Part shown: piece by piece, positions 5,594-54,248 of the stretch
Numbering within the stretch: the stretch's first letter is position 1
Layout: each line of letters begins with the position of its first letter
From: a virus
Length of the DNA stretch: 64,000 bases
Virus record (IMG/VR): IMGVR_UViG_3300046170_000494
Span: 64,001 to 128,000 of that record
Direction: 5' to 3' (one strand)
Notes under the pieces: generated by a model
The model's database searches: none
What the model saw: the letters and a program-made list of their open reading frames with translations, nothing else
Told to the model about the DNA's origin: nothing
Translations under genes and position numbers: made by a program

Positions 5594-5617
5594 AAGCCCC
5601 CGTAAGGGGGCTTTTTT
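5594..5617 (+). terminator. Rho-independent terminator after nrdB
   Basis: AAGCCCCC-GTAA-GGGGGCTT followed by a T run. Confidence 0.85.
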
Positions 5618-6908
5618 ATGACAAGATATCAAGTAAAGGCTCGCCTTTATGAGCTATTGTAAAAGGTCTTCCAGAAGGAGAATATTGGTAGTCATTTAAT
5701 GGTAAGCCTAAAGTGTGTGCAATTGTAGCATTTAAGTCTTCTGGTTTAACAGGCTTGCCTTCTGTAGGAGTGCGCCCCGTTTTGTCGGTTTCTCCATAAG
5801 TCATTCCACCTTTAACTCCTCCTCCTGCTAAAAAAGCTGTAAAGCAATAAGGCCAGTGATCTCTTCCGTCTCTTCCGTTAATATTTGGAGTTCTTCCAAA
5901 TTCAGAAGTTAAAACTACCAAAGTGTCAGAAAGCATACCTCTTCGATTTAAATCGATCAACAGTCCACTTAATGCTTGATCGATATCTGTGCAATTTGCC
6001 GCTACTCTATCAAAGTTATTATCATGTGTATCCCATCCTCCTCTTGTTACTTCAACATATCTTACCCCATGTTCTACTAACCTTCTTGCTAATAAGCATC
6101 CTTTTGCAAAATTAGTTTGACCATAAAGATTACTTGTTGACTCAGGCTCTTTTGTGATGTCAAAAGCGTTTAAGTCATTACTATTCATTAATTTAATTGC
6201 GTCTTTATATAAGTCAGAATAAGCTCTTACTTTTTTCTGCGGAAATTGGGTAGAAAAATTTTCATTTAAAGCTTCTGCGATAGATATTCTACTTTGAAAA
6301 TGCTCATGATCTAAGTATGAAGCCATTTTGCTATTAGCTAATCCTGAGTTTGGATTATTAATTGGTAATGCTCCGTATTTAGATTCTAAAAAACCAGCGC
6401 CGCCTCCGCCGCCTCCTATTTTAACATTGCTGGGTATTGTTCTGTTGATTGAGCCAGAAAGTTTGGACACCCAGCTACCAAATGTAGGATGAACAATTGT
6501 GCCTCTTTTAAGATAGCTTGTATGCATTAAATAACTGGCTTGCTCGTGAGCTCCTTGGCTTGTGTTCATTGTTTTAATTATTGCTGCATGATGCATAAGC
6601 TCGGCGGTCTTTGGTAGGTTTTCCGAAAGGATTACTCCATCTGCGCTTGTTGGAATAGATTTAGTAGGGCCTTGAATATCTGGTGCGTCTGGCTTCGGCC
6701 CAAATGTATCAAGGTGAGACATGGCTCCTCCCATATTTAAATAAATTACGTGCCTTGCGGTAGGAACTCTTGCTCCTGGATTTAACGCGCTAACACTATT
6801 ATGTATATACGCTCCTGCCATTGGCATAAGACCCACCCCAAAACATGCTTTTGCAGCATGAGCTATAAATTCTCTTCTTCCTAATTCGTCTATTGTATTA
6901 AAGTTCAT
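5616..6908 (-). CDS. DUF1501 family protein with Tat signal
   Basis: GRREFI twin-arginine leader; YLNMGGAMSHLDTF, GGWDTH, SEFGRTP, GRDHW motifs. Confidence 0.9.
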   Translation of the reverse strand: MNFNTIDELGRREFIAHAAKACFGVGLMPMAGAYIHNSVSALNPGARVPTARHVIYLNMGGAMSHLDTFGPKPDAPDIQGPTKSIPTSADGVILSENLPKTAELMHHAAIIKTMNTSQGAHEQASYLMHTSYLKRGTIVHPTFGSWVSKLSGSINRTIPSNVKIGGGGGGAGFLESKYGALPINNPNSGLANSKMASYLDHEHFQSRISIAEALNENFSTQFPQKKVRAYSDLYKDAIKLMNSNDLNAFDITKEPESTSNLYGQTNFAKGCLLARRLVEHGVRYVEVTRGGWDTHDNNFDRVAANCTDIDQALSGLLIDLNRRGMLSDTLVVLTSEFGRTPNINGRDGRDHWPYCFTAFLAGGGVKGGMTYGETDKTGRTPTEGKPVKPEDLNATIAHTLGLPLNDYQYSPSGRPFTIAHKGEPLLDILS

Positions 6909-6918
6909 AATAGATTAT

Positions 6919-6923
6919 TACAC
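6919..6923 (-). promoter_or_regulatory. GTGTA promoter motif
   Basis: GTGTA-N10-ATG (6908). Confidence 0.6.
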
Positions 6924-6947
6924 AATTTTGAGAAAAGTCAACAGGAA

Positions 6948-6952
6948 GTGTA
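6948..6952 (+). promoter_or_regulatory. GTGTA promoter motif
   Basis: GTGTA-N9-GTG (6962). Confidence 0.6.
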
Positions 6953-6961
6953 TGATATATT

Positions 6962-7348
6962 GTGCGGTTTTTATTGCTTATATTCATTATACCCAGTATT
7001 TTATGCGCTAGATTGCAAAGAGAAGATTATTTAGATAATTGTGATTGGTGCAAAAATCAAGCTAAGTCTACTCAGCCATTAGATATCGGCGAATGGAGCA
7101 TGAGGTGCCAGCAAAAACCGAAACCAATATGGTTTAATTATAGAAATATAGGCAGAGCATATGGAACTTATAAAGAAAAAACTTCTATGTGTTGGATTTA
7201 TTCTGAAAAATTAGGTTGGATATATAACACTCCTCAATATAAAGATTATATTTATACTCACAAACTTGGATGGATCTACGTAAAAGATGGCAAGGTTTAT
7301 GTCTTCAAAAAGAAAAAGTGGGATTATTTTACAAATATAAATTCATGA
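6962..7348 (+). CDS. Small secreted hypothetical protein
   Basis: Hydrophobic leader MRFLLLIFIIPSILCA, CDWC motif, two LGWIY repeats. Confidence 0.6.
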   Translation: MRFLLLIFIIPSILCARLQREDYLDNCDWCKNQAKSTQPLDIGEWSMRCQQKPKPIWFNYRNIGRAYGTYKEKTSMCWIYSEKLGWIYNTPQYKDYIYTHKLGWIYVKDGKVYVFKKKKWDYFTNINS

Positions 7349-9594
7349 GTATTAATTAATGTCCAAATTATTTCTTTGTATGCATCTTTTTCGTTTTTAA
7401 TATTATCAGTAAATATTTTCATTTCTTTAGAAGAGGGTTTTCTATTTAATATATATTTATATCCTGTTGTAATTTTATCATTCAATGACTTTTGCGACTG
7501 TATTGCTTTTATAATTTCAAAGTTTTTATTTTTTAATAATCTAGTTTCAACAAAACCATTAAGAAGATTTAATACTTGTGTTGCAGAGGCGCTTTTATTT
7601 GCGTTTTCTATCTGTTCCCTATCTGAACCACCAAACTCACGAATAAGGTGCCCTATGGGCGCAGGAGAAGGTAGTTCTGAGGCTCTTACTGAATTGCGGT
7701 CTTTTACAAAGTTTTGCTGATATTCTTTTTTCTTGTTTTCAATCTGAGATTTGAATTTATCAACACAAGATTCGCAACAAAAAGCTAAAGTCTCTCCGTT
7801 TTCATTTAGAGCTAATAATGTTGGGTCTATTGCTCTGCCAGGTTTAATTGGACAGTCTGTGTTTATTGGCTTGCTGAATTTAGACTCGCTTTGAGTTTTA
7901 GGTCTTTCAGTTTTGTTGATTTTAGCCATCAATTCCGAAAACAATTCTTCTCCTGTCATTTCTGAAAAATTTTGAAAATTTTGATATCCTTTTGTATTTT
8001 GCTCTAATTTTCTAGAATCAACATTATTTACCGTTAAATTAACTAAGGAATCCCAGATTTGTTCTCCGCTCATTCTTTCAAGCATGGGTCCTTGATAGAA
8101 ATAGGGTACTGCATTTTTGGATTGATTTTCGCTATCTGGACCAGCCACAATCCATTTTACTTCTACGGGCATAGACTGATCTTTATTGTCTTTGGGAATA
8201 ATGTCTCTCACCACAGATTGGCGCTGAAAAGTTTTTGTATTATATAATATTCTAAGAAATTCCTTAAGGTCATAATTTAATGCAACCATAACTTTTTCGA
8301 GGTGAAGTTGAAGTTTTGGATCGGTCGCTAATGTATCATCAAACATATTGTCTATGGGTTCAATTAATGCTAGTCCAAAAGCTTCTTTCCAGAGTCGGTT
8401 AACAATAACTGCTGTAAATCTTGGGTTTGAATCTGAGGCTAGCCAGTTTGCATAAATTTCTCTAGATCCTGATTGAGGGGCTTTTGTTTTAATGTCTATC
8501 TCTTCTCCAAAAATAGTTTTACCCATTAATGCTTGGTTTGGTTTTCCGTTGTCGTATTGATAATCTTTTGGAAGATTTATCTTTCCATTGCCCATACTAG
8601 CTAGTCCAGTTTGAAGAATGTCTTGTATGTCTCTCACTCCGTTTTGTAATTGCCTTGATTTTTGCGGTTCATCATTATTTTCTAATTTGCGCCTTTCATC
8701 TCTAGCCAATCTGTTTAATATGGTTAAATTTTCTGGACTTTTGGTTCTTAAGTTAGTTGAGCCACTCGTAAAAGCTGCCATTTCGTAAAATTGCTTTTGA
8801 GTCCAGCGATCAAATGGATGATCGTGGCATTGGGCGCATTCTAAGCTCGTACCTAAAAATACTCTAACTGTATTTGCCATACTGTCTAATGGCATATTTA
8901 CATCACGAGCAAAATAACTAACTCCCTCATTACCTTTAATCCATAGTGGGCCAGAAGAAGAAAGCATCTCTCTTACCCATTCATCATAAGGTTTGTTATT
9001 GGAGATGAAGTCTTTTACATAATTTTTATATGGAACGCCAGATATTCTATTGTTTAATCTATCTTTAATTCTTAATATATCTGCCCAAAAGTTAAACCAA
9101 TGGCTTACATATCCTTCGCTACCTAATAATTGATCAATTAGCTGCGATCTTTTATTTTTATCTTTACTATTTAAAAAAGAATCTACTTCTGTTAAAGATG
9201 GAGTCCTGCCAATAACCTTTAAGTATGATCTGCGTAAAAATGTAGCGTCGTCAACTTCTTTATTTGGTCGAAGATTATATCCTCTAAGTTTTGTTTCAAT
9301 CAAGCTATCAATATAATTAGCATGAGTTTTTAAATCTTTATCTGATAAGGGTTTTTTGAATTTGGGTAGAGCTTCATGGCTTGGGGGGAAATTATTTTTA
9401 ATATATGCTTGATTATCTTCTGTGAGAGAATCTATTGCTATTCTAAATAACTGTAAATCACTAGATCTTTTTATTAAAGCGTGAGTCGCATTTGCCTCAA
9501 GAATATCTCCTTTTAGATCTTTTCCGTTGTTAAAATAAAGCGTATCGCCGAAGCAATAGATTGATGATAAGAATAATAAAATTAGTTTTTTCAT
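7324..9594 (-). CDS. DUF1549/DUF1553 (PSD1-type) secreted protein with CxxCH and a YHS-like insert
   Basis: Signal peptide from ATG 9594; DDATFLRRSYL..IGRTP, FLGTSLECAQCHDHPF, NPRF..VIVNRLW, FGGSDRE motifs. Confidence 0.88.
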   Translation of the reverse strand: MKKLILLFLSSIYCFGDTLYFNNGKDLKGDILEANATHALIKRSSDLQLFRIAIDSLTEDNQAYIKNNFPPSHEALPKFKKPLSDKDLKTHANYIDSLIETKLRGYNLRPNKEVDDATFLRRSYLKVIGRTPSLTEVDSFLNSKDKNKRSQLIDQLLGSEGYVSHWFNFWADILRIKDRLNNRISGVPYKNYVKDFISNNKPYDEWVREMLSSSGPLWIKGNEGVSYFARDVNMPLDSMANTVRVFLGTSLECAQCHDHPFDRWTQKQFYEMAAFTSGSTNLRTKSPENLTILNRLARDERRKLENNDEPQKSRQLQNGVRDIQDILQTGLASMGNGKINLPKDYQYDNGKPNQALMGKTIFGEEIDIKTKAPQSGSREIYANWLASDSNPRFTAVIVNRLWKEAFGLALIEPIDNMFDDTLATDPKLQLHLEKVMVALNYDLKEFLRILYNTKTFQRQSVVRDIIPKDNKDQSMPVEVKWIVAGPDSENQSKNAVPYFYQGPMLERMSGEQIWDSLVNLTVNNVDSRKLEQNTKGYQNFQNFSEMTGEELFSELMAKINKTERPKTQSESKFSKPINTDCPIKPGRAIDPTLLALNENGETLAFCCESCVDKFKSQIENKKKEYQQNFVKDRNSVRASELPSPAPIGHLIREFGGSDREQIENANKSASATQVLNLLNGFVETRLLKNKNFEIIKAIQSQKSLNDKITTGYKYILNRKPSSKEMKIFTDNIKNEKDAYKEIIWTLINTHEFIFVK

Positions 9595-9624
9595 TGTAGG
9601 ATTATAATATTTACAAACTATAAT

Positions 9625-9655
9625 TACACAAAAAAGCCACCCATTTCTGGGTGGC
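9625..9655 (-). terminator. Rho-independent terminator fused to a downstream GTGTA motif
   Basis: GCCACCCA-GAAA-TGGGTGGC-TTTTTT-GTGTA on the minus strand. Confidence 0.8.
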
Positions 9656-9679
9656 CGTATGGAACATTTATTAGATTTC

Positions 9680-10330
9680 TTAAAAAGAAAAGTTAAATGC
9701 TGCAGACAATAAATCTTCTCCATCCATAGATTCGGAGTCTACTCTCGCATATCCTATAGAGCCTTCAATAGAATCGGTTAGATTTTTTGAAAGAGTCGCG
9801 CCAACTTGATAGTAATCATTATTTTCAAGTCCATACCTATCTGAATTACCGACTGATCCGCCAATAGTTAAGTTTGCGAATTGCAAATCAAAACCGTGTG
9901 ACATTCCTCCTTCGAAGACGTAGTTATTATCACTGGTATCTCTTTGAATTAATAGATAAGGAGATAATACAGTATTCAAGCTCAATCTCACAACTGCATC
10001 GAGTTGACTTTGACCACTCACAATCTCTTCATGCTCAAGGCCAACATAAGCTTTGAGTAAATCTGCAAATTCAGAAGAAGCTCCTACAGAAAAAACATAA
10101 ACACTTTGTCCGTCAGAGAGTTCATCAAAAGAAGATGCCGAACCTTCAAGGGTTAGGCTTTCAATTTCTTGACTGTAACCGACTGAAGCAGAAAGACTTT
10201 CTTCTGTGAGTAAAGAGCCTTTATTGAATGTGTCGCTTCCATATCCAAGGGATACGGAGCCGGATCCAGCGTAAGCTGCGTTAATAAAAAGCGCCGTAAT
10301 GGCGGTAACAGTAATTAATAATTTTTTCAT
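9680..10330 (-). CDS. Putative outer-membrane beta-barrel protein
   Basis: Signal peptide ending AYA, alternating amphipathic strands, C-terminal AAFNFSF with terminal Phe. Confidence 0.7.
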   Translation of the reverse strand: MKKLLITVTAITALFINAAYAGSGSVSLGYGSDTFNKGSLLTEESLSASVGYSQEIESLTLEGSASSFDELSDGQSVYVFSVGASSEFADLLKAYVGLEHEEIVSGQSQLDAVVRLSLNTVLSPYLLIQRDTSDNNYVFEGGMSHGFDLQFANLTIGGSVGNSDRYGLENNDYYQVGATLSKNLTDSIEGSIGYARVDSESMDGEDLLSAAFNFSF

Positions 10331-10342
10331 AATTAAAGTAGG

Positions 10343-10370
10343 ATTATATATTATATATCAATAATGTCAA
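10343..10370 (-). promoter_or_regulatory. sigma70-type promoter
   Basis: TTGACA-N16-TATAAT, 12 nt before ATG 10330. Confidence 0.65.
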
Positions 10371-10819
10371 TCAATTTTTATTTTATTTATAGATTTTCCT
10401 TTTCTGCGAGGTATTTTGATTTCTAATATACCATTATTCATAGATGCAGATATTTTATCAGGATCTAATTCTGATGTAAGCTTAAATGTATTCTTAAATC
10501 CATCTTTAAAGATTTGTTGCTGAACATATTCTCCTTCGATAGATTCTTCTTTTGGGGTTTTATAAGAGACAGAGAGCTTTCCGTTGTCGCATTCGATGTT
10601 GATGTCTTCCTTGGGTATTCCTGGAGTTAGTAGTTCTATTACAGTTTCTTTTTCTCTCGCAATAACATTAGCTTGAACTGGATAATCATCTAAATCATTA
10701 AAATAATCTGTTTCTTCAGGTAATGAGAAGTTAAGGAATAAATCATTTAATAGATTGTTCATTGTTGTTTTTGTTTTATTTGAATCTGGTCTATAGTTTT
10801 TTTTGAAGTAATATGACAT
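10367..10819 (-). CDS. Small heat-shock protein (Hsp20/alpha-crystallin)
   Basis: IELLTPGIPKEDINI...F.NTFKL...DPDKISASMNNGILEIKIPR. Confidence 0.92.
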   Translation of the reverse strand: MSYYFKKNYRPDSNKTKTTMNNLLNDLFLNFSLPEETDYFNDLDDYPVQANVIAREKETVIELLTPGIPKEDINIECDNGKLSVSYKTPKEESIEGEYVQQQIFKDGFKNTFKLTSELDPDKISASMNNGILEIKIPRRKGKSINKIKID

Positions 10820-10858
10820 AATATATTTTATAAGGGTTAATATTGATTTTTCTATATT

Positions 10859-10875
10859 TGCATTCTATGTGCCAA
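10859..10875 (-). promoter_or_regulatory. sigma54 (-24/-12) promoter upstream of hsp20
   Basis: TTGGCACATAGAATGCA: exact GG-N10-GC spacing, one mismatch to TGGCAC-N5-TTGCW. Confidence 0.65.
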
Positions 10876-11472
10876 TTACTTTTTAAATAAAAACGGAGCC
10901 CATTCGGGGCGCTCTTTTTGCAAGGGATGAAAGAAAGGGTATGGGTTTGAAGGCTTTAATTGCTCTCCTTTATAGTTTTTATAAGGATATATTGTGGCTT
11001 TTTTAGAGTTGCATGGTTGACAGGTTAATGTGACATTATGACTCTCTTTTGTGCCACCTTTGCTTTTTGGATAAATATGTTCAATGGTGGTATCTTTTAT
11101 TTCGAACTTATCTCCACAAATTTGACACCTTCCTCTATATCTTTTATATAAATATCTTAAATTCGGCTTTCCTTTTGTTTGATACACCCATTTAGCAGTA
11201 GTTAATAATATTGTTGGTACTGGATATAACTTGTTTGACGCGGCAATAAATGGTTGCTCTTTATAATAAGTTGAACGCTCTTCATCTATCCACTCTTCCC
11301 AATATAAAGGCTCTCCTGATTGAGATAATACTTTAACAGAAGGTTCGTTATTAGAGGTCGATCCGCAAGATATTAATTTTCTTATTCCTTCTTTAGCTGT
11401 AGTTATGTTGATTGGAGTCCAAAAATGAGATAATATTAAAACTACTCTATCTTTGCTATTAATTAAATTCAA
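10876..11472 (-). CDS. HNH endonuclease (McrA-like)
   Basis: CQICG...TIEHIYPKSKGG...NVTLTCQPCNSKK. Confidence 0.9.
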   Translation of the reverse strand: MNLINSKDRVVLILSHFWTPINITTAKEGIRKLISCGSTSNNEPSVKVLSQSGEPLYWEEWIDEERSTYYKEQPFIAASNKLYPVPTILLTTAKWVYQTKGKPNLRYLYKRYRGRCQICGDKFEIKDTTIEHIYPKSKGGTKESHNVTLTCQPCNSKKATIYPYKNYKGEQLKPSNPYPFFHPLQKERPEWAPFLFKK

Positions 11473-11474
11473 GA

Positions 11475-14400
11475 TTAATAAACTACCTGAAAGCTGATTC
11501 TGTTGCTGTTGGTCATGCCGTTGGCTGCGGTTCTTATCTCGATGTGGAAATCAGTTGTGGTGACTGGGTAAGTGTAATGTTCCACTCCGAAATATGCTCC
11601 ACCGTAACCACTTGGATTGCTCGAGCCACTGACGCTGTAATCGGCATGAGGCATGGGGTTGATGAATGTCACTTTGTAAATGCCGGTTGAGACTCGAACG
11701 ATGCTTGCCACATTACCTCCGGTGTGTCCAGTGATGGTGTTGCTGCCTTGTGTGCCATCGAATGTACCCCAGGCTTTGATACCGTATTGTGGTGCGGCCA
11801 AGCCAATCGGGCGATCCTGATGCTGAGCCATGATGCAAAATTCTGCTGCTACAGTAGTAGAATCATTATTTCTCATGGTCACAACATTCATGGAGTCTTT
11901 TGTTAAATTGTTGTAATTGACCAATACATAAGACACACCGTCCGCAATATCAGCCGAGACATTGATCATTGGTGTAGATGTGAAATGCCCGGGTTTGAAT
12001 TGGATGGCATACGATCCGGCGGATACACCGACAGTGGTTACACTTTGAATCCAGTCGTAGTTACTGCTGAGCACGGTGCCATCTGCACCTATTCTGGCAC
12101 TAACAACATTTGACTCGTTGTATCCACCGTTGTAGATGGCATGACCATTCTCGATGAACCAACGTAAATTATTGTTGGCCATATCGGATGAAGCACCATC
12201 ATTGGAGGGTGTGACGTTTGAACCATCTGCATCAGCTAGGAAATGTAAAGAATAGTCACCACTTCCAAAATATTCAATCCGATAAATGATCTCCCAAACG
12301 GTACCACCTGCTGTGGTGTTTGGTTTGATCCAGTGCAATCTGAACACACCAGCGTAACCTGGTCCAGTACTGTCGCAGAATATTGCATCCGGAAGCTCCG
12401 TGTAAAATCCACCGTTTGGACTGCCGCTCACAAGTGTTTTTAAATGATTCAAGCTACCTACGCCGCTGGTGCCACTCTTCTGACCATGATAAACAGCATG
12501 TCCATTGTCAATTATTTGCTGCAATACATTCACACTGTCAATGAAACTCCAACCGTTCCCATGTTGAACACCACCAGTTCCGGTTAGATCATTATTAAAA
12601 GTTGTATAATAGGGGTTTGAATTCTGTGTCCAACTAATGTATTGTATCTGAGAAGTCGTAACTGCATATAATGTCGCAAAAGCTGGACCGCCACCATGGT
12701 AAATAACAATTGAATCGGGTAATTTACCTGCGAAATTGCTGGTAGATTGGACTAGGCTGTTGCCTCCTGCCCCTCCGTCAGGTGGTGCGGTTTTGATTTG
12801 TTCTATGGCATCGCCTGCAGAGTTGACTCGAAAGTAACTACCAGCGTCCAATGTGGCGGGTGTATCTGTCAAATCCACGAACTCGTTGCTTTGAGCGCCA
12901 GGTCTCCACTTGCTGTTCGTGTCATCATACACTAATACCTGGCCATCACTGGGTGGCGTGGTTGTTACATCAACATCAGTCAACTGTTCAACAGATGAAG
13001 CTCCTCCACCACCAGAATCAACAGATCGACCACCGTGATACACCACGTTGCCGTTGTCGATCAATTGCTTCAAGGTGGTTTCACCATTCGGAGTGGTATA
13101 TTGACTAGCAGAGGGTCCTTGGGTCACCAGTCCAGATCCAGTGGCATCATTGTTGCATCGAACATAATAGCTTGAACTACCTGACGAGTCAGTCCAGTGT
13201 GTAAAATATATATAATTTGGTTCTAAATAATTGAATTGATAATTAAACACACCGCCAACTGATGCTCTTTTTATGATGATCCCATCTGGTATCATACCTT
13301 CAAAATTGCTCGTGTTTTGTATCTCCGGATGTGTGCCTGCGCTGCCGGTGTTGTCGGTGTGCCCATGATACAGAGCTCGGCCGTTTTCAACATACCATCG
13401 GAGATTTCCTAATGCGGTGAAGAAGATGGTCAACGTAGTGTTTGGAGTGCCATCTGCATCATTTGAAAAATAAATGCGACGGTCCTGTGTTGATCCATCT
13501 CCAAGATCTTCAAACCGATAACAGACATAATCTGTCTCAATGTGCGCGATATTCAGGATAAACTGCGCACCATTATGTTCATGAACAATCGCATCTGGTA
13601 AGTCAGTGTAAAAATCACTAGCGTTTTTGATTACGCTCAGGCTTCCGGCTCCGCTGGTGCCGCTTTTTTGGCCGTGGAATACCGCCTGTTTGTTGTCGAT
13701 ATATTCTTGAATGCTAGTGTACTGAGGAGACCCACCGATTGATTCGGTTTCAATACCTATACCCTTCGCACCAAACTTAATGAACCCGTTTCCGTTTTTA
13801 TATACATAATATATACCCGTGTCGTTGATGTAATATAGATCAAGCACCCTTACTATACTGGAATTGAGACGATCTATCAGCTGGTCAGGCAATTTTCCAT
13901 CGAACTGGCCGTACGATTGTATTAGACTGTTGTCACCTAAACCTCCATCGGGTGGTGCGGTCTTTATCTGTTCTATGGCGTCTCCCGTGGTGTTGACTCG
14001 TAGATAGCTACCGGCATCCAGAGTGGCAGGTGTGTCTGTCAAGTCTACAAACTCGTTGCTTTGAGTACCAGGTTTCCACTTGTCGTCTGTGTCATCATAC
14101 ACCAACACTTGACCTGCACTGGGTGCGTTTGTTGTTGTGTCCACATCGCTAAGATCGTCAATGTGATCAACCAGCTGATCCAGATTGCTACCGGTTCGAC
14201 CGTAAAACAAAGCGCGACCCGCGGCGATGTAACCTTGTATGTCATCATGCTCTTTGGTGACGTTCACCGCATGCGATCCACCAGTCCATACACCGGTGGT
14301 GTTGTTAAATGCGAACAAATAGTTGCCTGAGTGGCTATTTGATTGGTAATCGAATCGATCCGCACGAGCTTGTGTAAATTTAAATAATCGCAAATTACCG

Positions 14401-15482
14401 TTATGATCTTTGCCAAGTATGGCGTCAGGTATGTCAATCTGACTGGCCAGAGGCACCATTGATTTGACGTCTTCAAGCTGACCGATTCTGCTGGTCACAG
14501 CATCATGGCCATGATACAAAGCTCGCCCGTTCTCGATGTGCCACCGTAAACTGTTTGCGCTGTCTGCGTGAGTGAAGTACGATTTTTGTTGTTGTGTGCC
14601 GTCCGCGTCGTGGTTGTATCTTATCATCCGCAAATCGCTACTGGCATCTCCGTAGTCTTCATTTAAGTACTCTATATAACTAGATGTGACTCTTTTGAGA
14701 CTCAGTAAATATGGGTCATTACTAGAATCATGCGGGATGACAATTTGATCAGGTAGTTCTGTATAGAAATCGGTTACAGCGTTTTTGATTACGCTCAGGC
14801 TTCCGGCTCCGCTGGTGCCACTCTTTTGTCCATGGAATATGGCACGTCCATTGTCAATATACCAACGCAAGGATCCTGCAGATGTGAAAGATATATCGCT
14901 ATCCACAGTGCCAGATGCATCATTGTTGAAAATTATTCTATAATCATAAGTCGATGCGTCGCCAAAATCTTCGTATCGATATCCTATCTTCGTTCCGATA
15001 AAATGCAATGTTAATACGTACTCTGCTCCGCCCTGGTCATGTATAATCGCGTCTGGTAATTTACCATCAAAATTGCTGGCAGCTTGCATGTGACTGTTGT
15101 CACCAACCCCTCCATTAGGTGGCGCTGTTTTGATTTGTTCTATAGCGTCACCTGAAGAGTTGACTCGTAAGTAACCGCCGGCTTCAAAAGCATTAGGAGT
15201 ATCAGTGAGGCTAATAAAGTTGGTTGAAATAGAGATATCTGAAAACTCTAAAGCGTTACCTTCTGCATTTACTTTTAAATATTTTTCAGCTTGAAAGGCT
15301 CCAGGAGTATCAGTTAAACTAATGAAATCTGATGTTAATGCGGATGCTTGATTATCTACATTTCCTTGGTTGTCTATTTTATTTGTAGCTAATTTACCAT
15401 CTTGAGATACAGATAATAGTATTCCTTCTTCGGAGTCTTCGGCAACTATTTTGACAGAATTAGCATTGACAGTTCTTGTCAT
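11475..15482 (-). CDS. Long tail fibre / adhesin-like protein with 8 copies of a ~95-aa domain
   Basis: Four F..LTDTP linker modules, DLSDV-type repeats, 8x (LPD.I ... I[DE]NG.A.[FY]HG); C-terminal KAWGTFDG...VRVSTGIYKVTF fibre tip. GC visibly above the backbone. Confidence 0.7.
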   Translation of the reverse strand: MTRTVNANSVKIVAEDSEEGILLSVSQDGKLATNKIDNQGNVDNQASALTSDFISLTDTPGAFQAEKYLKVNAEGNALEFSDISISTNFISLTDTPNAFEAGGYLRVNSSGDAIEQIKTAPPNGGVGDNSHMQAASNFDGKLPDAIIHDQGGAEYVLTLHFIGTKIGYRYEDFGDASTYDYRIIFNNDASGTVDSDISFTSAGSLRWYIDNGRAIFHGQKSGTSGAGSLSVIKNAVTDFYTELPDQIVIPHDSSNDPYLLSLKRVTSSYIEYLNEDYGDASSDLRMIRYNHDADGTQQQKSYFTHADSANSLRWHIENGRALYHGHDAVTSRIGQLEDVKSMVPLASQIDIPDAILGKDHNGNLRLFKFTQARADRFDYQSNSHSGNYLFAFNNTTGVWTGGSHAVNVTKEHDDIQGYIAAGRALFYGRTGSNLDQLVDHIDDLSDVDTTTNAPSAGQVLVYDDTDDKWKPGTQSNEFVDLTDTPATLDAGSYLRVNTTGDAIEQIKTAPPDGGLGDNSLIQSYGQFDGKLPDQLIDRLNSSIVRVLDLYYINDTGIYYVYKNGNGFIKFGAKGIGIETESIGGSPQYTSIQEYIDNKQAVFHGQKSGTSGAGSLSVIKNASDFYTDLPDAIVHEHNGAQFILNIAHIETDYVCYRFEDLGDGSTQDRRIYFSNDADGTPNTTLTIFFTALGNLRWYVENGRALYHGHTDNTGSAGTHPEIQNTSNFEGMIPDGIIIKRASVGGVFNYQFNYLEPNYIYFTHWTDSSGSSSYYVRCNNDATGSGLVTQGPSASQYTTPNGETTLKQLIDNGNVVYHGGRSVDSGGGGASSVEQLTDVDVTTTPPSDGQVLVYDDTNSKWRPGAQSNEFVDLTDTPATLDAGSYFRVNSAGDAIEQIKTAPPDGGAGGNSLVQSTSNFAGKLPDSIVIYHGGGPAFATLYAVTTSQIQYISWTQNSNPYYTTFNNDLTGTGGVQHGNGWSFIDSVNVLQQIIDNGHAVYHGQKSGTSGVGSLNHLKTLVSGSPNGGFYTELPDAIFCDSTGPGYAGVFRLHWIKPNTTAGGTVWEIIYRIEYFGSGDYSLHFLADADGSNVTPSNDGASSDMANNNLRWFIENGHAIYNGGYNESNVVSARIGADGTVLSSNYDWIQSVTTVGVSAGSYAIQFKPGHFTSTPMINVSADIADGVSYVLVNYNNLTKDSMNVVTMRNNDSTTVAAEFCIMAQHQDRPIGLAAPQYGIKAWGTFDGTQGSNTITGHTGGNVASIVRVSTGIYKVTFINPMPHADYSVSGSSNPSGYGGAYFGVEHYTYPVTTTDFHIEIRTAANGMTNSNRISFQVVY

Positions 15483-16890: not shown

Positions 16891-17925
16891 TTATTTATTA
16901 CACAATAAATTGTAATCATTATCGTACATTTTTTGAACTAATTTTTTAAAATTTGTTTTTCTTTTCCAACCCAATTCTTTTTCAGCTAAAGATGGATCTC
17001 CGCATAGTTTATGAACTTCTGCAGGTCGGTAGAATTTAGGGTTTACCTCAAAAATTAATTGACCATCTAAAGTATAATATTTTTCATTATCTTCAGATCC
17101 AGAAGATTTAAATTGAATTCCTGCACATTTTAAGGTTTCATTTAAAAACTCTCTCACGGTATGCATTTCACCGCTGCCTAGAACATAATTTTTAGGTTTT
17201 TCTTGATTAAGCATGAGCCAAACGCCTTCCATGAAATCTTCTGCGTCGCTCCAATCTCTTTTAGCTTCTAGGTTTCCGAGTTTTAAAACAGGTATTTGTT
17301 TTTTGTCTTCTATAGCTAATTTTATTCTGGCTACCGTATGGCTAATTTTTCTTGTTACAAAATCCAAGCCTCTTCTTGATCCTTCATGATTAAATAGCCA
17401 ACCTTGAACTGCGTACAAGTTGTAAGATTCCCTGTAAACCCTGACAATATGTCTAGCTGCGCATTTCGCGGCGCCATATGGGCTTTGCGGTCTGAGGGGA
17501 TGGTTTTCGTCTTGAGGAGAGAAAACAACGTCACCAAATTCTTCACTGCTTCCAGCATTGTAAAATCTACAGTGAGGAGAAAACCTTCTAATTGATTCTA
17601 AAATATGTAGCACTGCATTAGAATCTGTTTCCCACGTTTGTATTGGATAATTCCAACTCCCAGCTACAAAAGATTGTGCAGCAAAATTTATGAAAAAATC
17701 TGGCTGTAAATCAATCACTATATCGCGAATACTATGTGCGTCGTTTAAATCCATATCAATTAGCTCAAATCGCGATTCATTTTCTAGATGTAAAATATTT
17801 TCATGGTTTTTCACGCTTAAGCGTCGCGCTGTACCGTATATTTTATAATTTGTATTTTTTAAAAGATAGTCAATCATGTGACTACCATCTTGACCTGTTA
17901 CTCCTGTTACTATAATTTTTTTCAT
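16891..17925 (-). CDS. gmd: GDP-mannose 4,6-dehydratase
   Basis: TGVTGQDG, AAQSFV, SSEEFG, SPYGAAK, LFNHE, FVTRKI, LGNLEAKRDW, RPAEV. Confidence 0.93.
   Translation of the reverse strand: MKKIIVTGVTGQDGSHMIDYLLKNTNYKIYGTARRLSVKNHENILHLENESRFELIDMDLNDAHSIRDIVIDLQPDFFINFAAQSFVAGSWNYPIQTWETDSNAVLHILESIRRFSPHCRFYNAGSSEEFGDVVFSPQDENHPLRPQSPYGAAKCAARHIVRVYRESYNLYAVQGWLFNHEGSRRGLDFVTRKISHTVARIKLAIEDKKQIPVLKLGNLEAKRDWSDAEDFMEGVWLMLNQEKPKNYVLGSGEMHTVREFLNETLKCAGIQFKSSGSEDNEKYYTLDGQLIFEVNPKFYRPAEVHKLCGDPSLAEKELGWKRKTNFKKLVQKMYDNDYNLLCNK
16899..16903 (-). promoter_or_regulatory. GTGTA promoter motif
   Basis: GTGTA-N10-ATG (16888), lying inside the gmd 3' end. Confidence 0.6.
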
Positions 17926-31347: not shown

Positions 31348-32133
31348 CTAGCATCCAAGGTGATTCCAGTAACTCATAAATATCTTCTTTAATTCATAAG
31401 GATAAGCCATAAAATGTAATATAAATGTGTCATTATTTACTAACCTTGGGTCAGTATTAAATTCTTTCATTTTAAATATTTTTCTATTAAAACCAAAGCC
31501 ATCACTCTTTTTTAATATCTCGCATAATATTTCTTGATCTCCTCCGCTGGCGTACAATGAAGATTTATCTCCATCGAAATCTCGCCATTTTTTTATTATG
31601 TTTTTTGTATATTGATGAGATTTAAAGAATAATACCCCGCTATTTAGCATGCAATGATCGCCAATATCTTTTGTTGCAAGTATGAATTTTTTCGGAGCTT
31701 TTTCTATAATTGATTCAAGTTTTTTTTCTGGATTAAAAATTAACGTGTCTGAATCCATCCATACAATATAATCGTGATCATCAATATGATTAAGTAACGC
31801 TTGGGATTTTGACCAATTCGGACTTCCGTTTTTATCTAAATTTTCTCTGTAGACGTAAAAGCTGTAACCCTGCTTTTCGCAGTATTCTTTAATACTTTTT
31901 TCTGAGTAAATAGCGAATTCAGAAATCTCTTTCGTATACAGGCTGACGATTGCAATCTTCTTAAATGGATTAAAACAATTGAATTTATCTTTAGGTTCTT
32001 CAATCACAGGTATTTGCGAGCTTATGTATTTAACCCAATCAAAAAGCTTTCTGTGTTTTCCAAATCTATCATTATTGAAAAAACTTAACCATTGATTTTT
32101 GAGATCTATTAATTCTTGTTGTTTTTTATTCAT
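31348..32133 (-). CDS. Glycosyltransferase GT34-like (MNN10/GMA12)
   Basis: WSK...YIVWMDSDT, LNSGVLFFK, GDQEIL. Confidence 0.82.
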   Translation of the reverse strand: MNKKQQELIDLKNQWLSFFNNDRFGKHRKLFDWVKYISSQIPVIEEPKDKFNCFNPFKKIAIVSLYTKEISEFAIYSEKSIKEYCEKQGYSFYVYRENLDKNGSPNWSKSQALLNHIDDHDYIVWMDSDTLIFNPEKKLESIIEKAPKKFILATKDIGDHCMLNSGVLFFKSHQYTKNIIKKWRDFDGDKSSLYASGGDQEILCEILKKSDGFGFNRKIFKMKEFNTDPRLVNNDTFILHFMAYPYELKKIFMSYWNHLGC

Positions 32134-33635
32134 TTGAATTTCATTTTATTTTTATCTATAGGGTTTCTTACCCCCCAATGTTCAACTCCACTTTCATCGT
32201 ACATAGCTTCTTTACCTAAACCATTAGCTATATTGAATGTATTTTTATCGTATTTAAATAGAAAAGTCTCTTCGGGCGGAGTTTCTATGAAAATTTGAAT
32301 ATACTTTGATTCATTTATCTTTTCAATTATTTTATCTAAAACTTCTTCGCTTGGATGTCTTTCTAGACTGTGTCCATAAATCATTTTAGTTAAAGCGTGA
32401 AAATATGTAATTGGCGCTAATGTTAATATATCTTGCCAACCTGACCTTCTTCTCCTTAACATTAAATCTAATGCTGATTTATGTAGTGGATTATTTGGGG
32501 CGCTAATCATAATATCTTGAGAAAAGTCTATGATTTTTCCATGATTGGAGTGCAGGGGTAAAACGCATTTTGCGTTTTTTTGTATAATTGAGTCTAGATC
32601 TTTATTTGTATGTCTATCTATATCTGTATATAGGCCACCTTCGTTAACTATTTTTAATAGACGCCATGTGTCAACTTTTGATACTATCGGTGCGTCTTTA
32701 ATTAAATTGTAGTCTACGCTTGATAAGTTCTCCTTTAAATAAGTTTCTACTTCGTTATCATCTGAGATGATAAGCTCCCAGTTAGGGTTTAACTTAATTA
32801 AATTCTGTATTCCATTTATAGCTAATTGATTTGAACTTTCTAAGATAGATTTATCTTTCCATGAAATATGAATTTTTTTAGGTATAGATGGTAGAGGTTC
32901 AAGTAAATCATCTAGATTTTTTGATTGAGAACTTATTCTCATAATAGAAGAATTATTAAAAAAACTAGATTTCTTTTTGGGTAAATTAATCGGATCAGAA
33001 TATACTTTTTTATGATACTTGCTATTATCTAGTTCAAAATTAGTTGCAGCTTCCCTACCTCCGAACTTTAAATCCTGAAGAAAAATAGGTTTCTTAAGAG
33101 CGTATACATTATAATTTGTCTGCATTTCCGCAGCAAAAACATCCCAAATTTTATCTTGATAAAAACCATCGATCATAGCTTTCTGATAAGCCGCTGCGCC
33201 GAGAGCGCTGCAAATCATTATTGAGTGACCGCTTAACATATTAAATATTTGATAAGTATTTTCATCTACCTCTTTTGCAGAGATATCATCAACAGCTTTA
33301 CCGTTATTCATTGCAAGCTGGGACAAACCTAGATAAAACAAATCAGCATCATACGGAATATCTATCTCTTCTGGCATTTCCCTGAAAAAAGAAATATCGT
33401 CCTCTAATATCACAAAGGGTTGAAATGGTTTGTCATTATCTTGATCCCTTAACCCTGCCTCAATCATTCTTGCATGACCTATACTTCCAGATTTTTCTTT
33501 TGATATACCTATTTCAAAAGGTAGTACTTTTTTGCATTGATAATATTTTAATATAGATTCTACATGTTTAGAGTTTTCACTATCTTCTGTTTTTGTTAGA
33601 TAATAAAATTTAATATTATTTGTTTTGAGTATCAT
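32130..33635 (-). CDS. Two-domain glycosyltransferase (GT25-like + GT32 DXD)
   Basis: FVILEDD in the N-domain; IPKKIH...DTWRLLKIVNEGGLYTDID in the C-domain. Confidence 0.8.
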   Translation of the reverse strand: MILKTNNIKFYYLTKTEDSENSKHVESILKYYQCKKVLPFEIGISKEKSGSIGHARMIEAGLRDQDNDKPFQPFVILEDDISFFREMPEEIDIPYDADLFYLGLSQLAMNNGKAVDDISAKEVDENTYQIFNMLSGHSIMICSALGAAAYQKAMIDGFYQDKIWDVFAAEMQTNYNVYALKKPIFLQDLKFGGREAATNFELDNSKYHKKVYSDPINLPKKKSSFFNNSSIMRISSQSKNLDDLLEPLPSIPKKIHISWKDKSILESSNQLAINGIQNLIKLNPNWELIISDDNEVETYLKENLSSVDYNLIKDAPIVSKVDTWRLLKIVNEGGLYTDIDRHTNKDLDSIIQKNAKCVLPLHSNHGKIIDFSQDIMISAPNNPLHKSALDLMLRRRRSGWQDILTLAPITYFHALTKMIYGHSLERHPSEEVLDKIIEKINESKYIQIFIETPPEETFLFKYDKNTFNIANGLGKEAMYDESGVEHWGVRNPIDKNKMKFK

Positions 33636-34716
33636 CTATTATTTTCTTATATACATTAATGTTGTTTGTATTATATGGACTATATTTATTTAGGAAATTT
33701 CTATTATCTTCCCTGCTTTGATCTAGTGTTTTTGAATGATTAAGTATAGCGTTCTTTAATTGGTTTGCGCCAAAATCTACATCGCAGTCTGGATAATAAT
33801 AACCTACATCTTGTAAAGTTGGCGAATTATGTATTAAGGGCAGGTTTAAAAATAAAGCCTCGAGATAACTGTAGTTTAGTTCATTTTTTATTTGATGGCT
33901 AACTATAGTGCTTCCAAATTTACTTAAAGCGTTGAGAGAACCCCATCTTTTATTAAAGTAGCAAAAGTCTTTCTTTTTAACTACACTTAGTCTATTCATT
34001 AGTTTTTCAAAAAATGGATTAAACTTAATTCGTTGACAACAGAATAAATTTACAGATTTCATTATTTCCGAATCCTTGTGATAGAGGTTTTCGCATATAT
34101 TAATTGGCACTATACAATTTTTAATATATGAAATATTAGGTTCAAAGATACATATTTTATGGCTTCTGGCTTGTGTATAATTAGGATCCAAGCCTTTGTA
34201 TTTTAATTCTTGTATCTTATCTTCTACGAAAAATGAATCCCATATAAATGGTATGACTATAACTTTTTCAAAATTATAATATGTCTTAATATAGTTTTTT
34301 GAAAATTCATGTTGCGGGGATATCCAGATTTGATCTAGATATTTTGGCTTTTCTAATGGAAGCTTTGCGCTTTTATCTAATAAGGAGTGATGTATGTCGT
34401 CCATTAATTTATTGCCAAAATGAATCAAAATTGTATTGAAATTTTTATTTCTAGATTTAAATTTATCGTACATCTCTGGCAGTAAATCAAATCCAGCTAC
34501 TATTATTAGATCTAAGCTTTCGTTGTCATCAGATAATAAGTCATCTAATAGCATGCCTTTGTGATCTTTTTTTAATTTATGTAATGGCTCTTTATATGTA
34601 ATGTAGAAACATTCGTGGCCGCATCTTTGTATCATTTCGTACAAGAAGACTATATTTTGTTGCATCCCGTTCGCCCAGAAGGCGACCGACATATCGAGGG
34701 TTATTCCTATTTTCAT
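33616..34716 (-). CDS. DUF2827 family protein (GT-B-like)
   Basis: MKIGIT...FWANGMQQN, IFEPNI, VSHQ..NELNYSYLE, PLIHNS...GYYYPD. Confidence 0.82.
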   Translation of the reverse strand: MKIGITLDMSVAFWANGMQQNIVFLYEMIQRCGHECFYITYKEPLHKLKKDHKGMLLDDLLSDDNESLDLIIVAGFDLLPEMYDKFKSRNKNFNTILIHFGNKLMDDIHHSLLDKSAKLPLEKPKYLDQIWISPQHEFSKNYIKTYYNFEKVIVIPFIWDSFFVEDKIQELKYKGLDPNYTQARSHKICIFEPNISYIKNCIVPINICENLYHKDSEIMKSVNLFCCQRIKFNPFFEKLMNRLSVVKKKDFCYFNKRWGSLNALSKFGSTIVSHQIKNELNYSYLEALFLNLPLIHNSPTLQDVGYYYPDCDVDFGANQLKNAILNHSKTLDQSREDNRNFLNKYSPYNTNNINVYKKIIDDTQNK

Positions 34717-35792
34717 GACAATAATTTTTTATATTTTTCTATAACAAGTGGATTTTTGGGTGAATATTTGTAAATTGTTTTTCTAGAGTTTTCTTTGTAA
34801 GATTCCAGGTTTTGATCGTGGTAGTTTAGGGCTAGTTCTAAAGCTCTACTTCCAAGTTTAGTGTCGTAATCAGGGTAATAATATCCTGCTGATTTAATAA
34901 TATTGGAATTATGAACTAATGGAAAATTGAAATGTAACGCTTCGAGATAAGTATAATTCAGGGCATTTAGTAGTTGGTTGGAGATAAATATATTGGATAA
35001 GCCTGTGAATATTTTGGTCACTTTTATTCTCGGCTTGAATTCAATTTTATTTTCTTTTGTAATGTTGAGTTTCCACATTAAAGATTTGAAGTATTTTTTA
35101 TCTAAAAACTTTGATGCGCAATAAACAGATATTTTGTTGAAATCTTCTTTACTTATATTTGAAAAATATTCCTCCGCTATCATAATTGAAGGGAGGCAGT
35201 GCTTAGTTATGTTTAAATTAGGTTCGAGTATACCAATATTTTTCTCTTCTCCTGCCTTATAGTAGCATGTTTTGTTTATTTTATTCCAGATTTTTTCATG
35301 AATATCTACATATTTAGGGCTCCAGATATAAGGTAATTCGAATATTTTTTCCGTATGATAATACGTTTTATAGTAATTGTAGGAAAATTTATAATGGGGA
35401 GATATCCAAACTTCGTCAGCGGTTTCATTATCTATTGCTAAGTGATCCTGCCAACTACATCTTTCTATATCGGCTAGCATTCCGTTGCCATAAACTATAT
35501 GAATATTTTTAAAACTTTTATTTTTTTGCCTTATTAATGAAATCGTGGAAGATTCTATTAGCCAGGCAGTGTTTAGTACAAAAGCTAAATCATCACAATA
35601 ATCTAAGATTTCATTTTTTTCAATAATTATAATATCACATGGAGGATCAACACATTTATCTATGTCATGATTTACTGCAATAATAGGATTGAATCCTAAA
35701 TTAATTAATAATTCAGATAAAAATACAATATTTTGCTGCAAACCATTACTAAAAAGCCCGTTTTCAAAATTAGCTGTCAATAAAACTTTCAT
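34713..35792 (-). CDS. DUF2827 family protein, paralog
   Basis: LFSNGLQQN, LEPNL, SNQLLNALNYTYLE, PLVHNS...GYYYPD. Confidence 0.82.
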   Translation of the reverse strand: MKVLLTANFENGLFSNGLQQNIVFLSELLINLGFNPIIAVNHDIDKCVDPPCDIIIIEKNEILDYCDDLAFVLNTAWLIESSTISLIRQKNKSFKNIHIVYGNGMLADIERCSWQDHLAIDNETADEVWISPHYKFSYNYYKTYYHTEKIFELPYIWSPKYVDIHEKIWNKINKTCYYKAGEEKNIGILEPNLNITKHCLPSIMIAEEYFSNISKEDFNKISVYCASKFLDKKYFKSLMWKLNITKENKIEFKPRIKVTKIFTGLSNIFISNQLLNALNYTYLEALHFNFPLVHNSNIIKSAGYYYPDYDTKLGSRALELALNYHDQNLESYKENSRKTIYKYSPKNPLVIEKYKKLLS

Positions 35793-47114: not shown

Positions 47115-47438
47115 ATGAAAAAATTCATCCAAATACCATTAGCTATTCAAGAAGATATTATTTCGGGAAATTTAATTGGCAACGATCTAGTTGTTTATTC
47201 CTACCTTGTTGATAAGGCAGGGCATGGTAAGCCCATATATTTTTCCAACAACAAGATAGCTGGTGAATTAGGTGGGATGTCTTATGGTAAAATATCGGCA
47301 AGCCTAAATAGGCTTCATAAGGCTAAACATATTTTAAGAAAAAAAACAGCAGGGAACACAATGACGCAACTAAAGACTGTTGTAATAAATTCTAAAAACA
47401 TTTTAATCAAAGGGAGACAGCATGAAGATATCTGTTAG
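47115..47438 (+). CDS. Winged helix-turn-helix DNA-binding protein
   Basis: LVVYSYL...YFSNNKIAGELGGMSYGKISASLNRLHKAKHI. Confidence 0.7.
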   Translation: MKKFIQIPLAIQEDIISGNLIGNDLVVYSYLVDKAGHGKPIYFSNNKIAGELGGMSYGKISASLNRLHKAKHILRKKTAGNTMTQLKTVVINSKNILIKGRQHEDIC

Positions 47439-48375
47439 AATGGAAGGGGGTCTAGGTGATCATTTCGCCGCTAATAGATTTATACCTGCGATTAAAGAAT
47501 ATCACCCTGGATGTAAAATAGACTTATGGTCAGACACAGAAGGTAACTCAATACAGTCAGACATACTTAGAGAAATATGGCCAGACCATTTTAATGATGT
47601 TTTTGTTTTAGAAAAAAAGAAATATAAAAATTTTCGAATAAAATCATCAAATTTCCCAGAAGAAGATTATAGGGGGTCAATTAAAAATGTGCGATCCAAT
47701 GATATAAAATTAATGAAAGGAGCTTATGATAAGTTCTACGATTTACATATCGATTCTCTAGATTGGTTAAATCACGATTATGATTGGTTTAAATATTTTA
47801 ATGTATTCCCAAGACCTACCACCAGCTTAACTCAAAACATAGAGTTGCCTTTTGAAAAATTTATTTTAGCGCACCTTTATGCAAGAGATGATGCAGACTC
47901 AAATATGGAGGATTGGTATATCAAGAGGTTAATTAATGACGTAACAAAAGATTTTAATTTAATAATTCTTTATGATAACGATTCAAAGCATAAATACGAA
48001 GATTTCTTTGGATCAAAAAATCCTAAATTACATTTAATTCACGCAGATCTAAGGCAAATATTTTATTTAGCAAGTAAATGCACAGCTATGTTTGGTATTG
48101 ATTCGGGAATACGATACATTCCGTATCATTTTGGCAAACCTACATTTACTTTCTCAAAATATTGTCAAAAATATGGAACCGTTCAATATTCTTATTTAAT
48201 CAGATGGTTATTTAATGAAAGATATGTTTTCCCTTTACATTATGACGTTAGTAGCGCAAGTCAGATAATTAAAAATATGCTCGTAAACCCAGCTTATAAA
48301 CTTTACCCATTCTTACTTGATGACATTGAGAGTTTAGTTGCTCAGAGAGACATAACGGAATATATAACAGAATGA
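47422..48375 (+). CDS. GT-B glycosyltransferase, GT9-like
   Basis: EGGLGD; FGIDSGIRYI..HFGKP. Confidence 0.6.
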   Translation: MKISVRMEGGLGDHFAANRFIPAIKEYHPGCKIDLWSDTEGNSIQSDILREIWPDHFNDVFVLEKKKYKNFRIKSSNFPEEDYRGSIKNVRSNDIKLMKGAYDKFYDLHIDSLDWLNHDYDWFKYFNVFPRPTTSLTQNIELPFEKFILAHLYARDDADSNMEDWYIKRLINDVTKDFNLIILYDNDSKHKYEDFFGSKNPKLHLIHADLRQIFYLASKCTAMFGIDSGIRYIPYHFGKPTFTFSKYCQKYGTVQYSYLIRWLFNERYVFPLHYDVSSASQIIKNMLVNPAYKLYPFLLDDIESLVAQRDITEYITE

Positions 48376-50799: not shown

Positions 50800-50826
50800 T
50801 AAAATATCAGAAAATAATACCAAAGC

Positions 50827-52958: not shown

Positions 52959-53361
52959 AGGAAATATTTCTGGGCCAATCCCAGAAAGAGAGAATCATCC
53001 GGACTATATAAAAGAAGCTCTTTCTAAAGGTTACGATGTAGAGGTAGATATATGGGGAGATAAAGAATTATGGCTTGGTCATGACAAGCCTCAATATAAA
53101 TGCTCTGTTAGTTTCCTTATTAATAATTATCAAAAATTATGGATTCATTGTAAAAACTTAATGGCTATAGATATATTATCTGAGTTTAAAGTTTTGAATT
53201 ATTTTTGGCATCAAAACGACGACCACACACTAACTTCTAAAAATTTCATATGGACTTACCCCGGAAAACATGTCTGTAATAAAAGTATTTTAGTAGTAGA
53301 TGACGCTAGAGAATATGCAGGTCCGATTTGTTTTGGTTTGTGTTCTGATTATTTAAAGTGA
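52939..53361 (+). CDS. Short glycerophosphodiester phosphodiesterase-like protein
   Basis: SHRGN...EN...GYDVEVDIW, LGHD, WIHCKN. Confidence 0.7.
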   Translation: MILVSHRGNISGPIPERENHPDYIKEALSKGYDVEVDIWGDKELWLGHDKPQYKCSVSFLINNYQKLWIHCKNLMAIDILSEFKVLNYFWHQNDDHTLTSKNFIWTYPGKHVCNKSILVVDDAREYAGPICFGLCSDYLK

Positions 53362-54239: not shown

Positions 54240-54248
54240 AATAAATAC

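Follow-up and report, generated by a model that had tools for sequence, protein, structure and literature searches.

The window analysed here is a stretch of 64,000 nucleotides of viral DNA (positions 64,001 to 128,000 of the IMG/VR record IMGVR_UViG_3300046170_000494), and it carries a host-derived auxiliary gene module of a marine phage. The module consists of two genes on the minus strand, one encoding a DUF1501 protein of 430 residues (5616-6908) and the other a PSCyt2 (DUF1549)/PSD1 (DUF1553) protein of 756 residues (7324-9594). This pair is almost certainly a phage-encoded auxiliary module that functions in the phage: it has viral genes on both sides, recurs in related viruses, has cellular homologues and is under purifying selection. 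Our best overall explanation, to which we assign a probability of roughly 60%, is that the pair is a host-derived periplasmic module that sustains a nutrient step of the host. In cells, DUF1501 and the PSCyt1, PSCyt2 and PSD1 domains form a genetic module that is conserved across Planctomycetota, Verrucomicrobiota and Lentisphaerota (Kamneva et al. 2012, PMC3542564; He et al. 2017, PMC5615132), and Rhodopirellula baltica has 41 copies of each partner domain (PMC2754498). DUF1501 with its PSCyt/PSD1 partners ranks among the largest families still without an explanation in Planctomycetes and Verrucomicrobia, and its redundancy has blocked genetic study.

The carrier is a large uncultured marine myovirus. 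Among the phage genes of the window are pieces of a DNA polymerase, the large and small subunits of a class I ribonucleotide reductase (RNR), Hsp20, an HNH endonuclease and tail fibres, together with an exonuclease, a primase, a DnaB-like helicase, UvsX and a tail sheath bearing a distant likeness to the sheaths of phiKZ-type jumbo phages. Relatives of DUF1501 (61-100% identity) were found at 48 loci in IMG/VR and relatives of PSCyt2/PSD1 (40-99% identity) at 37, on contigs of up to 213 kb. About 40 viral contigs share one block order: helicase, primase, exonuclease, epimerase, the open reading frame (ORF) orf15488, HNH, Hsp20, a barrel gene, the module, RNR and polymerase. Contigs from assemblies of other samples are collinear with the segment 4400-11000, with nucleotide identities of 97% and 86%, and both junctions of the module are spanned many times. 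Because these junctions recur in independent assemblies, a chimeric insert of host DNA is excluded. The relatives show three arrangements: the module precedes an RNR block that is inverted (the arrangement of the window), precedes one that runs in the same direction, or follows the block.

The family assignments are clear for both genes. The DUF1501 gene matched Pfam PF07394 over the full length of the profile (1-390 of 390; E=1.7e-110, 370.3 bits against a gathering cut-off of 27). The ORF at 7324-9723 (minus strand) matched PSCyt2/DUF1549 (PF07583; 1.9e-45, 155.8 bits, cut-off 29.8) followed by PSD1/DUF1553 (PF07587; 4.2e-26, 92.3 bits, cut-off 28.5) in one protein. The start of this protein is most likely the ATG at 9594 (MKKLILLFLSSIYCFG) and not the mechanical ORF end at 9723, as all relatives begin at a signal peptide reading MKKL..., which here corresponds to the ATG at 9594. 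DUF1501 has a twin-arginine motif, GRREFI, at residues 10-15 (6864-6881, minus strand), in which R11 and R12 are invariant in 117 homologues; signals of this kind are frequent among DUF1501 proteins (Kamneva et al. 2012, PMC3542564). PSCyt2/PSD1 has, in order, a Sec signal peptide, a small SH3/SHD1-like barrel, a helical PSCyt2 core, PSD1 with a four-cysteine (Cys4) finger and a DUF4214-like tail. Its core contains a haem-c-type motif, CAQCH (8824-8838, minus strand), within an extended pattern C-A-x-C-H-x-H-P; C253, A254, C256, H257, H259 and P260 are invariant in 70 sequences. An earlier, sequence-only reading of this DNA had named these families and proposed intact genes, Sec and Tat (twin-arginine translocation) export signals and a CxxCH motif, all of which hold, with the export signals judged from the sequence only. 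The same reading had taken 5616-10330 as the gene pair. Both named genes are real, but the span contains four genes for apparently exported proteins and not two, with a separate barrel gene at 9680-10330 and a fourth gene at 6962-7348 on the plus strand. No relative of the module was found in PHROGs, in 50,697 GenBank phage records or in BFVD, and no paper found in our literature search treats DUF1501 as a phage gene; the sole phage paper to mention it gives a weak CDD match in a 61-residue ORF only. The supposition that the module was undescribed as viral thus stands. Both outcomes named in the sequence-only reading as refuting it, a chimeric host insert and a lack of HMM support for the families, were contradicted.

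Selection and base composition both indicate that the genes belong to the phage. Pairwise ratios of nonsynonymous to synonymous substitution (dN/dS) among viral copies are 0.030 for DUF1501 and 0.068 for PSCyt2/PSD1, at a synonymous divergence of about 0.65-1.0; the ratio is 0.021-0.026 for the RNR subunits and 0.26-0.28 for the barrel protein (0.28) and Hsp20. The GC content of the module is 0.33-0.39 against 0.336 for the window, and GC at third codon positions (GC3) is about 0.25 in the phage genes against 0.32-0.73 in the nearest cellular orthologues. The module genes have long resided in the phage, share its composition and remain functional.

Regulation points in the same direction. A promoter-like element, TTGACT-16-AATAAT with a TG extension (6914-6941, minus strand), ends 5 nucleotides before the ATG of DUF1501 and contains GTGTA at 6919-6923. 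Upstream of PSCyt2/PSD1, a terminator consisting of a hairpin and a T-run (9635-9656, minus strand; conserved in loci L001-L005 and L010) separates the gene from the barrel gene and is followed by GTGTAAT and then by TATAAT, which ends 6 nucleotides before the ATG at 9594. GTGTA stands 14-15 nucleotides before the ATG in 7 of the 49 ORFs of the window, where about 0.04 would be expected; these are DUF1501, orf15488, 26710 (plus strand), 29203, 34713 and 41861 (all minus strand) and the tail sheath. As a word, GTGTA is not over-represented (50 found against 66 expected), and only its fixed position before starts is non-random. The proposal of phage-type GTGTA motifs upstream of both genes is hence borne out in part: the fixed position is found before DUF1501 and other phage ORFs, but there is no word enrichment and before PSCyt2 the motif lies at -35 from the ATG. 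In related contigs, the gene that opens the module, whichever of them it is, is preceded by a GTGTAA/T element at -13 to -16. The promoters of the RNR small subunit, polymerase and helicase genes are of the TTGACA type, and their -10 box, too, directly adjoins the start codon. The phage-type elements before the module genes therefore indicate that the module is wired like the phage's own genes. Together with the dN/dS values of 0.03 and 0.07 and the phage-like composition, they agree with the view of the sequence-only reading that an AT-rich module resembling the phage backbone is retained under phage control. We did not adopt GTGTA as a late promoter; before DUF1501 it is joined with the -35-like TTGACT. 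At many ORFs of the window (e.g., 4553, 1694, 6908, 9594 and 38770), -10-like boxes end 5-7 nucleotides before the ATG with no visible Shine-Dalgarno sequence, which suggests that mRNAs may be leaderless or near-leaderless throughout the phage. Genes of the structural region have a TGTGTAAT-type box without a clear -35 element.

Our search of cellular genomes, with one genome per prokaryotic species, found the closest copies in metagenome-assembled genomes (MAGs) and single-cell genomes of marine Opitutales/Opitutia, at 66-79% identity for DUF1501 and 46-63% for PSCyt2/PSD1; the next tier, at no more than 50%, comes from other Verrucomicrobiota and Planctomycetota. The Opitutales loci are without phage genes. 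Two of them (L091, 3261-9390, and L086, 3422-9072) read PSCyt2/PSD1 (841-890 residues), DUF1501 (432 residues) and a protein with PSCyt1 cytochrome c and leucine-rich repeats, and are flanked by genes for a formylglycine-generating enzyme (FGE)-sulfatase, a sulfatase, a class-V aminotransferase and a glyoxalase. Opitutales genomes (2.0-2.4 Mb) have about 8-24 DUF1501 matches each and the phage has one; the phage therefore holds one particular paralogue. In the DUF1501 tree, viral copies fall into at least four groups interleaved with Opitutales copies, all inside a single clade marked 100*. The PSCyt2/PSD1 tree agrees: its viral copies fall into the clade of the window, another that is sister to L094-L098 and a third in basal position. 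Under an approximately unbiased (AU) test, monophyly of the viral copies is rejected (delta lnL 224, p=3e-62). This comparison with host copies, which the sequence-only reading had proposed as a check, therefore shows that the cassette was exchanged several times, at least three to four, between marine Opitutales and the phage lineage. Opitutales (Verrucomicrobiota) are very probably the origin of the module and are probably also the hosts of the phage, for which the main argument is that the pair moves as a cassette between the two. Bacteroidota promoters have a known consensus of their own, and the sigma-70-type promoters of the window would speak against a host in that phylum.

The phage version of the module is recognizably that of the Planctomycetes-Verrucomicrobia (PVC) group and of Opitutales, with both Pfam families, adjacent genes on one strand, the order PSCyt2/PSD1 then DUF1501, a signal peptide and a twin-arginine signal, and the invariant CxxCH. 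It differs in lying among replication genes, in being a single copy and in its phage-like codons. PSCyt1 (PF07635), the third gene of the host locus, had no Pfam match in the phage protein or its neighbours. Loci without PSCyt1 have also been described (Kamneva et al. 2012, PMC3542564), and its lack marks a reduced form of the PVC module rather than exclusion from it. The phage PSCyt2/PSD1 protein is also shorter, at 756 residues against 841-890 in hosts, with the loss of one Cys4 finger or of a PSCyt1-like insert. A single TRASH-like finger, CPIKPGR...FCCESC, is inserted in PSD1 (7765-7854, minus strand; weak Pfam match to Ta0938), whereas host orthologues have two Cys4 fingers or one finger plus a PSCyt1-like CxxCH insert, and two other viral clades have none. 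Unlike the host locus, the pair is split in the lineage of the window by the unrelated small exported gene.

The composition of the module varies among the viruses. PSCyt2/PSD1 has been lost repeatedly, while DUF1501 stays constrained. DUF1501 occurs alone in at least two sublineages nested among carriers of the pair (L022, L023 and L045; L032 and L048) and in a third clade (L033-L040, L046 and L101), where it lies about 70 nucleotides downstream of the 3' end of a tRNA gene and has an unchanged dN/dS of 0.030. In L019, a tRNA gene lies upstream of PSCyt2. Two loci (L082 and L083, at 9914-14558) have one PSCyt2/PSD1 gene followed by two tandem DUF1501 genes, the extra copy matching Pfam with E=4.7e-116. 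One contig (L003, IMGVR_UViG_3300031851_006073) has a DUF1501 that is 99% identical to that of the window and a PSCyt2/PSD1 that is 87% identical, a mosaic that implies a recombination point between them. Extra segments of about 1.1-1.3 kb are inserted between DUF1501 and RNRb in L001 and L002, and between RNRb and RNRa in L006, L009, L018, L043 and L044.

What the DUF1501 protein does can be approached through its conserved residues and predicted fold. The 117 homologues share H65-x-D67-T68, S/T116, H121, H140, W-D293-x-H295, E336-F-G-R339 and R349-D/N350-H351, which is the layout expected of a metal-dependent hydrolase of the alkaline-phosphatase superfamily with a putative Ser/Thr nucleophile. 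The pattern fits that of enzymes of this superfamily (S1 sulfatases, LtaS/EptA/YejM, NPP and PhoD/PhoX), with an Asp after the first strand, followed some 50 residues on by a Ser/Thr, and with D-x-H and D-H pairs where they would be expected; the predicted Tat export is shared with PhoD and PhoX. An AlphaFold2 (AF2) model from 12 sequences was weak, with a predicted local distance difference test score (pLDDT) of 58; in Foldseek it matched LtaS, choline sulfatase, sulfamidase, arylsulfatases and YejM at probabilities of 0.94-1.0, with TM-scores of only 0.23-0.36. DUF1501 is unlike these enzymes in having no sequence match to a solved structure, no formylglycine motif, no membrane domain and a haem-motif neighbour that looks obligatory. 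A sequence-profile search of the PDB gave no real match to a solved structure for DUF1501, Pfam gave no match to Sulfatase (PF00884), and the C/S-x-P-x-R motif is lacking from the protein, whose nucleophile region reads T-S-Q-G-A-H. Against a host S1 sulfatase, hhalign aligned only a strand-loop piece of 33 residues at 1.5% probability; DUF1501 does not belong with the S1 formylglycine sulfatases.

The PSCyt2/PSD1 protein gave a better model (70 sequences, pLDDT 87, predicted TM-score 0.84), in which the region around CAQCH is the least confident part of the core (pLDDT 64). In Foldseek searches of the PDB and a wide fold search, structural neighbours were limited to the N-terminal small barrel (Sla1 SHD1, Z 8.5; Hfq-like) and the tail, which resembles DUF4214 and phycobilisome linkers. 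A fold search of BFVD with the same model matched nothing.

We propose that both proteins would be exported to the host periplasm during infection, where DUF1501 would carry out catalysis as a hydrolase that depends on metal and uses a Ser/Thr nucleophile, and PSCyt2/PSD1 would be its haem-motif partner or scaffold. Export of DUF1501 by the Tat route would be explained if its cofactor is loaded in the cytoplasm. The pair may be joined by the PSCyt1 cytochrome of the host, for which the phage has no gene. The step kept up or boosted would be the removal of phosphate or sulfate esters from an imported substrate, and the released phosphorus, sulfur or carbon would feed phage replication. This specific assignment, a periplasmic ester hydrolase for nutrient supply, is tentative, and we consider it less likely than not. 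The Ser/Thr nucleophile and the Tat export would favour a phosphate ester; the host neighbourhood, together with the association of PSCyt genes with sulfatases in the literature (PMC5615132), would favour a sulfate ester, and we cannot choose between the two. In the clade of L034, an APS-kinase-like gene next to DUF1501 was considered as a link to sulfur and not adopted, as the match is a partial P-loop fused to a cytidylyltransferase-like region.

Several points weigh against this explanation. The core of PSCyt2/PSD1 matched no solved fold in searches with the whole model, the core domains not being searched singly; we propose no new fold for it, and the role given to this protein is a guess. 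The nucleophile (S/T116 or T68) is assigned from a sequence pattern only, because the DUF1501 model is poor. The cluster of exported proteins around the pair would fit a role in the envelope equally well. The host, too, would be assigned from the module by itself: a search with the tail sheath of genome contigs and of five genomes behind the loci gave no match and hence no independent link to Opitutales. Close homologues of the phage epimerase (L166-L177) lie on short contigs in MAGs of unrelated phyla (including Flavobacteriaceae, Patescibacteria, an Asgard archaeon and Proteobacteria) and provide no such link either; these are most likely mis-binned phage contigs and not hosts. A 210-kb contig of 35% GC in a 'Cellvibrionales' MAG (L101), the single exception to Opitutales among the closest cellular copies, also looks like a mis-binned phage, as it has the phage barrel gene and the only DUF1501 of that genome.

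A role in the envelope can be stated more fully, with the barrel protein, the small exported protein, PSCyt2/PSD1 and DUF1501 as a phage envelope set for remodelling or superinfection exclusion. DUF1501 would then act like the LtaS/EptA/YejM branch on a host lipid or glycan, blocking adsorption or preparing lysis. Such a set would account for four consecutive genes with export signals, for LtaS and the periplasmic domain of YejM being among the best fold matches and for the further exported-protein genes inserted in or beside the module in related phages; the GTGTAAT element, common to structural-region genes, may also mean late expression. However, the barrel gene is its own transcription unit, is ten times less constrained (dN/dS 0.28) and stays in phages without PSCyt2/PSD1, and DUF1501, in contrast to LtaS, EptA and YejM, lacks a membrane domain. 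The phage genes are, moreover, orthologous to one of the 8-24 or so host paralogues, and the position of its locus next to sulfatase and FGE genes suggests a catabolic role rather than one in envelope biogenesis. We regard an envelope role, the main rival of the nutrient explanation, as unlikely.

Another possibility is a narrower form of the nutrient explanation, in which DUF1501 would be exported by Tat as a phosphatase or phosphodiesterase and would provide the phosphate needed for phage DNA synthesis. Cyanophages carry host-derived pstS and phoA, which serve phosphate acquisition, and psbA. Like these auxiliary genes, the module is host-derived, under purifying selection, under phage-type regulation and repeatedly exchanged with hosts, and by analogy an exported nutrient role is plausible; it differs from them in its host phylum, Verrucomicrobiota, and in being a two-protein module with a haem-motif partner. 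Phosphorus scavenging would agree with the Ser/Thr at the nucleophile position and the lack of a formylglycine motif, with the Tat export of PhoX and PhoD, with the position of the module next to RNR and DNA polymerase genes in all arrangements and with the equal constraint on lone DUF1501. It agrees less well with a host locus adjoining sulfatase and FGE-sulfatase genes, with the link between PSCyt genes and sulfatases in the literature (PMC5615132), with a window in which no pho-type genes (pstS, phoH) were seen, or with a haem-motif partner and cytochrome for which a phosphatase has no evident need, and in this restricted form we consider it improbable. An assembly chimera, a mis-binned host fragment or a recently acquired, decaying passenger useless to the phage might be suspected of a family that is otherwise cellular and has no relative in PHROGs, GenBank phages or BFVD, but is extremely improbable given the same junctions in independent assemblies, shared synteny in about 40 contigs, intact frames at a dN/dS of 0.03-0.07, phage-like codon composition and phage-type promoter elements.

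Within the nutrient explanation, a more specific form is that DUF1501 is the self-sufficient catalytic unit of the PVC module and that periplasmic nutrient-ester scavenging has been captured several times by phages of marine Verrucomicrobia. This form is doubtful as it stands. If true, it would be the first auxiliary-gene class described for Verrucomicrobia phages and would offer a minimal, single-copy entry point to a family that has been unexplained for twenty years. The phage copies do show that DUF1501 can persist without its partner. The phage keeps a single, trimmed orthologue under strong selection, an indication of which paralogue is most important while infection proceeds, and these compact, AT-rich genes would lend themselves to expression, to analysis of metal and haem and to screens for substrates. 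The module also provides a handle on the host, marine Opitutales, of a group of large uncultured phages that is abundant in the ocean; very few phages are known for this phylum.

The two other exported-protein genes of the span are distinct from the module. The barrel gene (9680-10330, minus strand) encodes a protein of 216 residues resembling an outer-membrane beta-barrel, with a signal peptide, alternating beta-strand-like sequence, a C-terminal FNFSF and a Pfam match to Phage_OMP, a cyanophage barrel family, that is below the cut-off (0.0067). A reading of 9680-10330 as the N-terminus of the DUF1549/DUF1553 protein was ruled out by the different frame, a stop and the terminator. The gene has a perfect (12/12) TTGACA-16-TATAAT promoter at 10343-10370 and is syntenic with Hsp20 in nearly all relatives, including those without PSCyt2; it is a neighbour of the pair and not part of the module. 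The small gene (6962-7348, plus strand) lies between the pair and is transcribed away from DUF1501; it encodes 128 residues with a signal peptide, CDWC and two LGWIY repeats, and a Pfam search matched it to no family. Its ORF is intact in 10 related contigs (55-100% identity), and distant copies lie just upstream of PSCyt2 in L018, L043 and L044. It fills a gap of 415 nucleotides between the pair, which in most relatives are about 30 nucleotides apart with no insert, and it is not part of the ancestral pair. On the other side of DUF1501, a hairpin terminator (5594-5613) lies between that gene (minus strand) and the convergent RNR small-subunit gene (plus strand).

Some further features of the window lie outside the module. 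The HNH endonuclease gene (10876-11472, minus strand) is directly behind a tail-fibre gene encoding 1335 residues (11475-15482, minus strand), the middle of which is markedly GC-richer than the rest of the window (0.45 at 12001-14000 against 0.34). The sugar epimerase gene is at 16891-17925. Two islands of glycosyltransferase type, at 31348-35792 and 47422-58729, hold GT34-like, Gly_transf_sug (two), DUF2827 (two), GT25, WavE, GT1 with DUF4214 and GT9 genes, and are accompanied by a fusion of HAD and nucleotidyltransferase domains.

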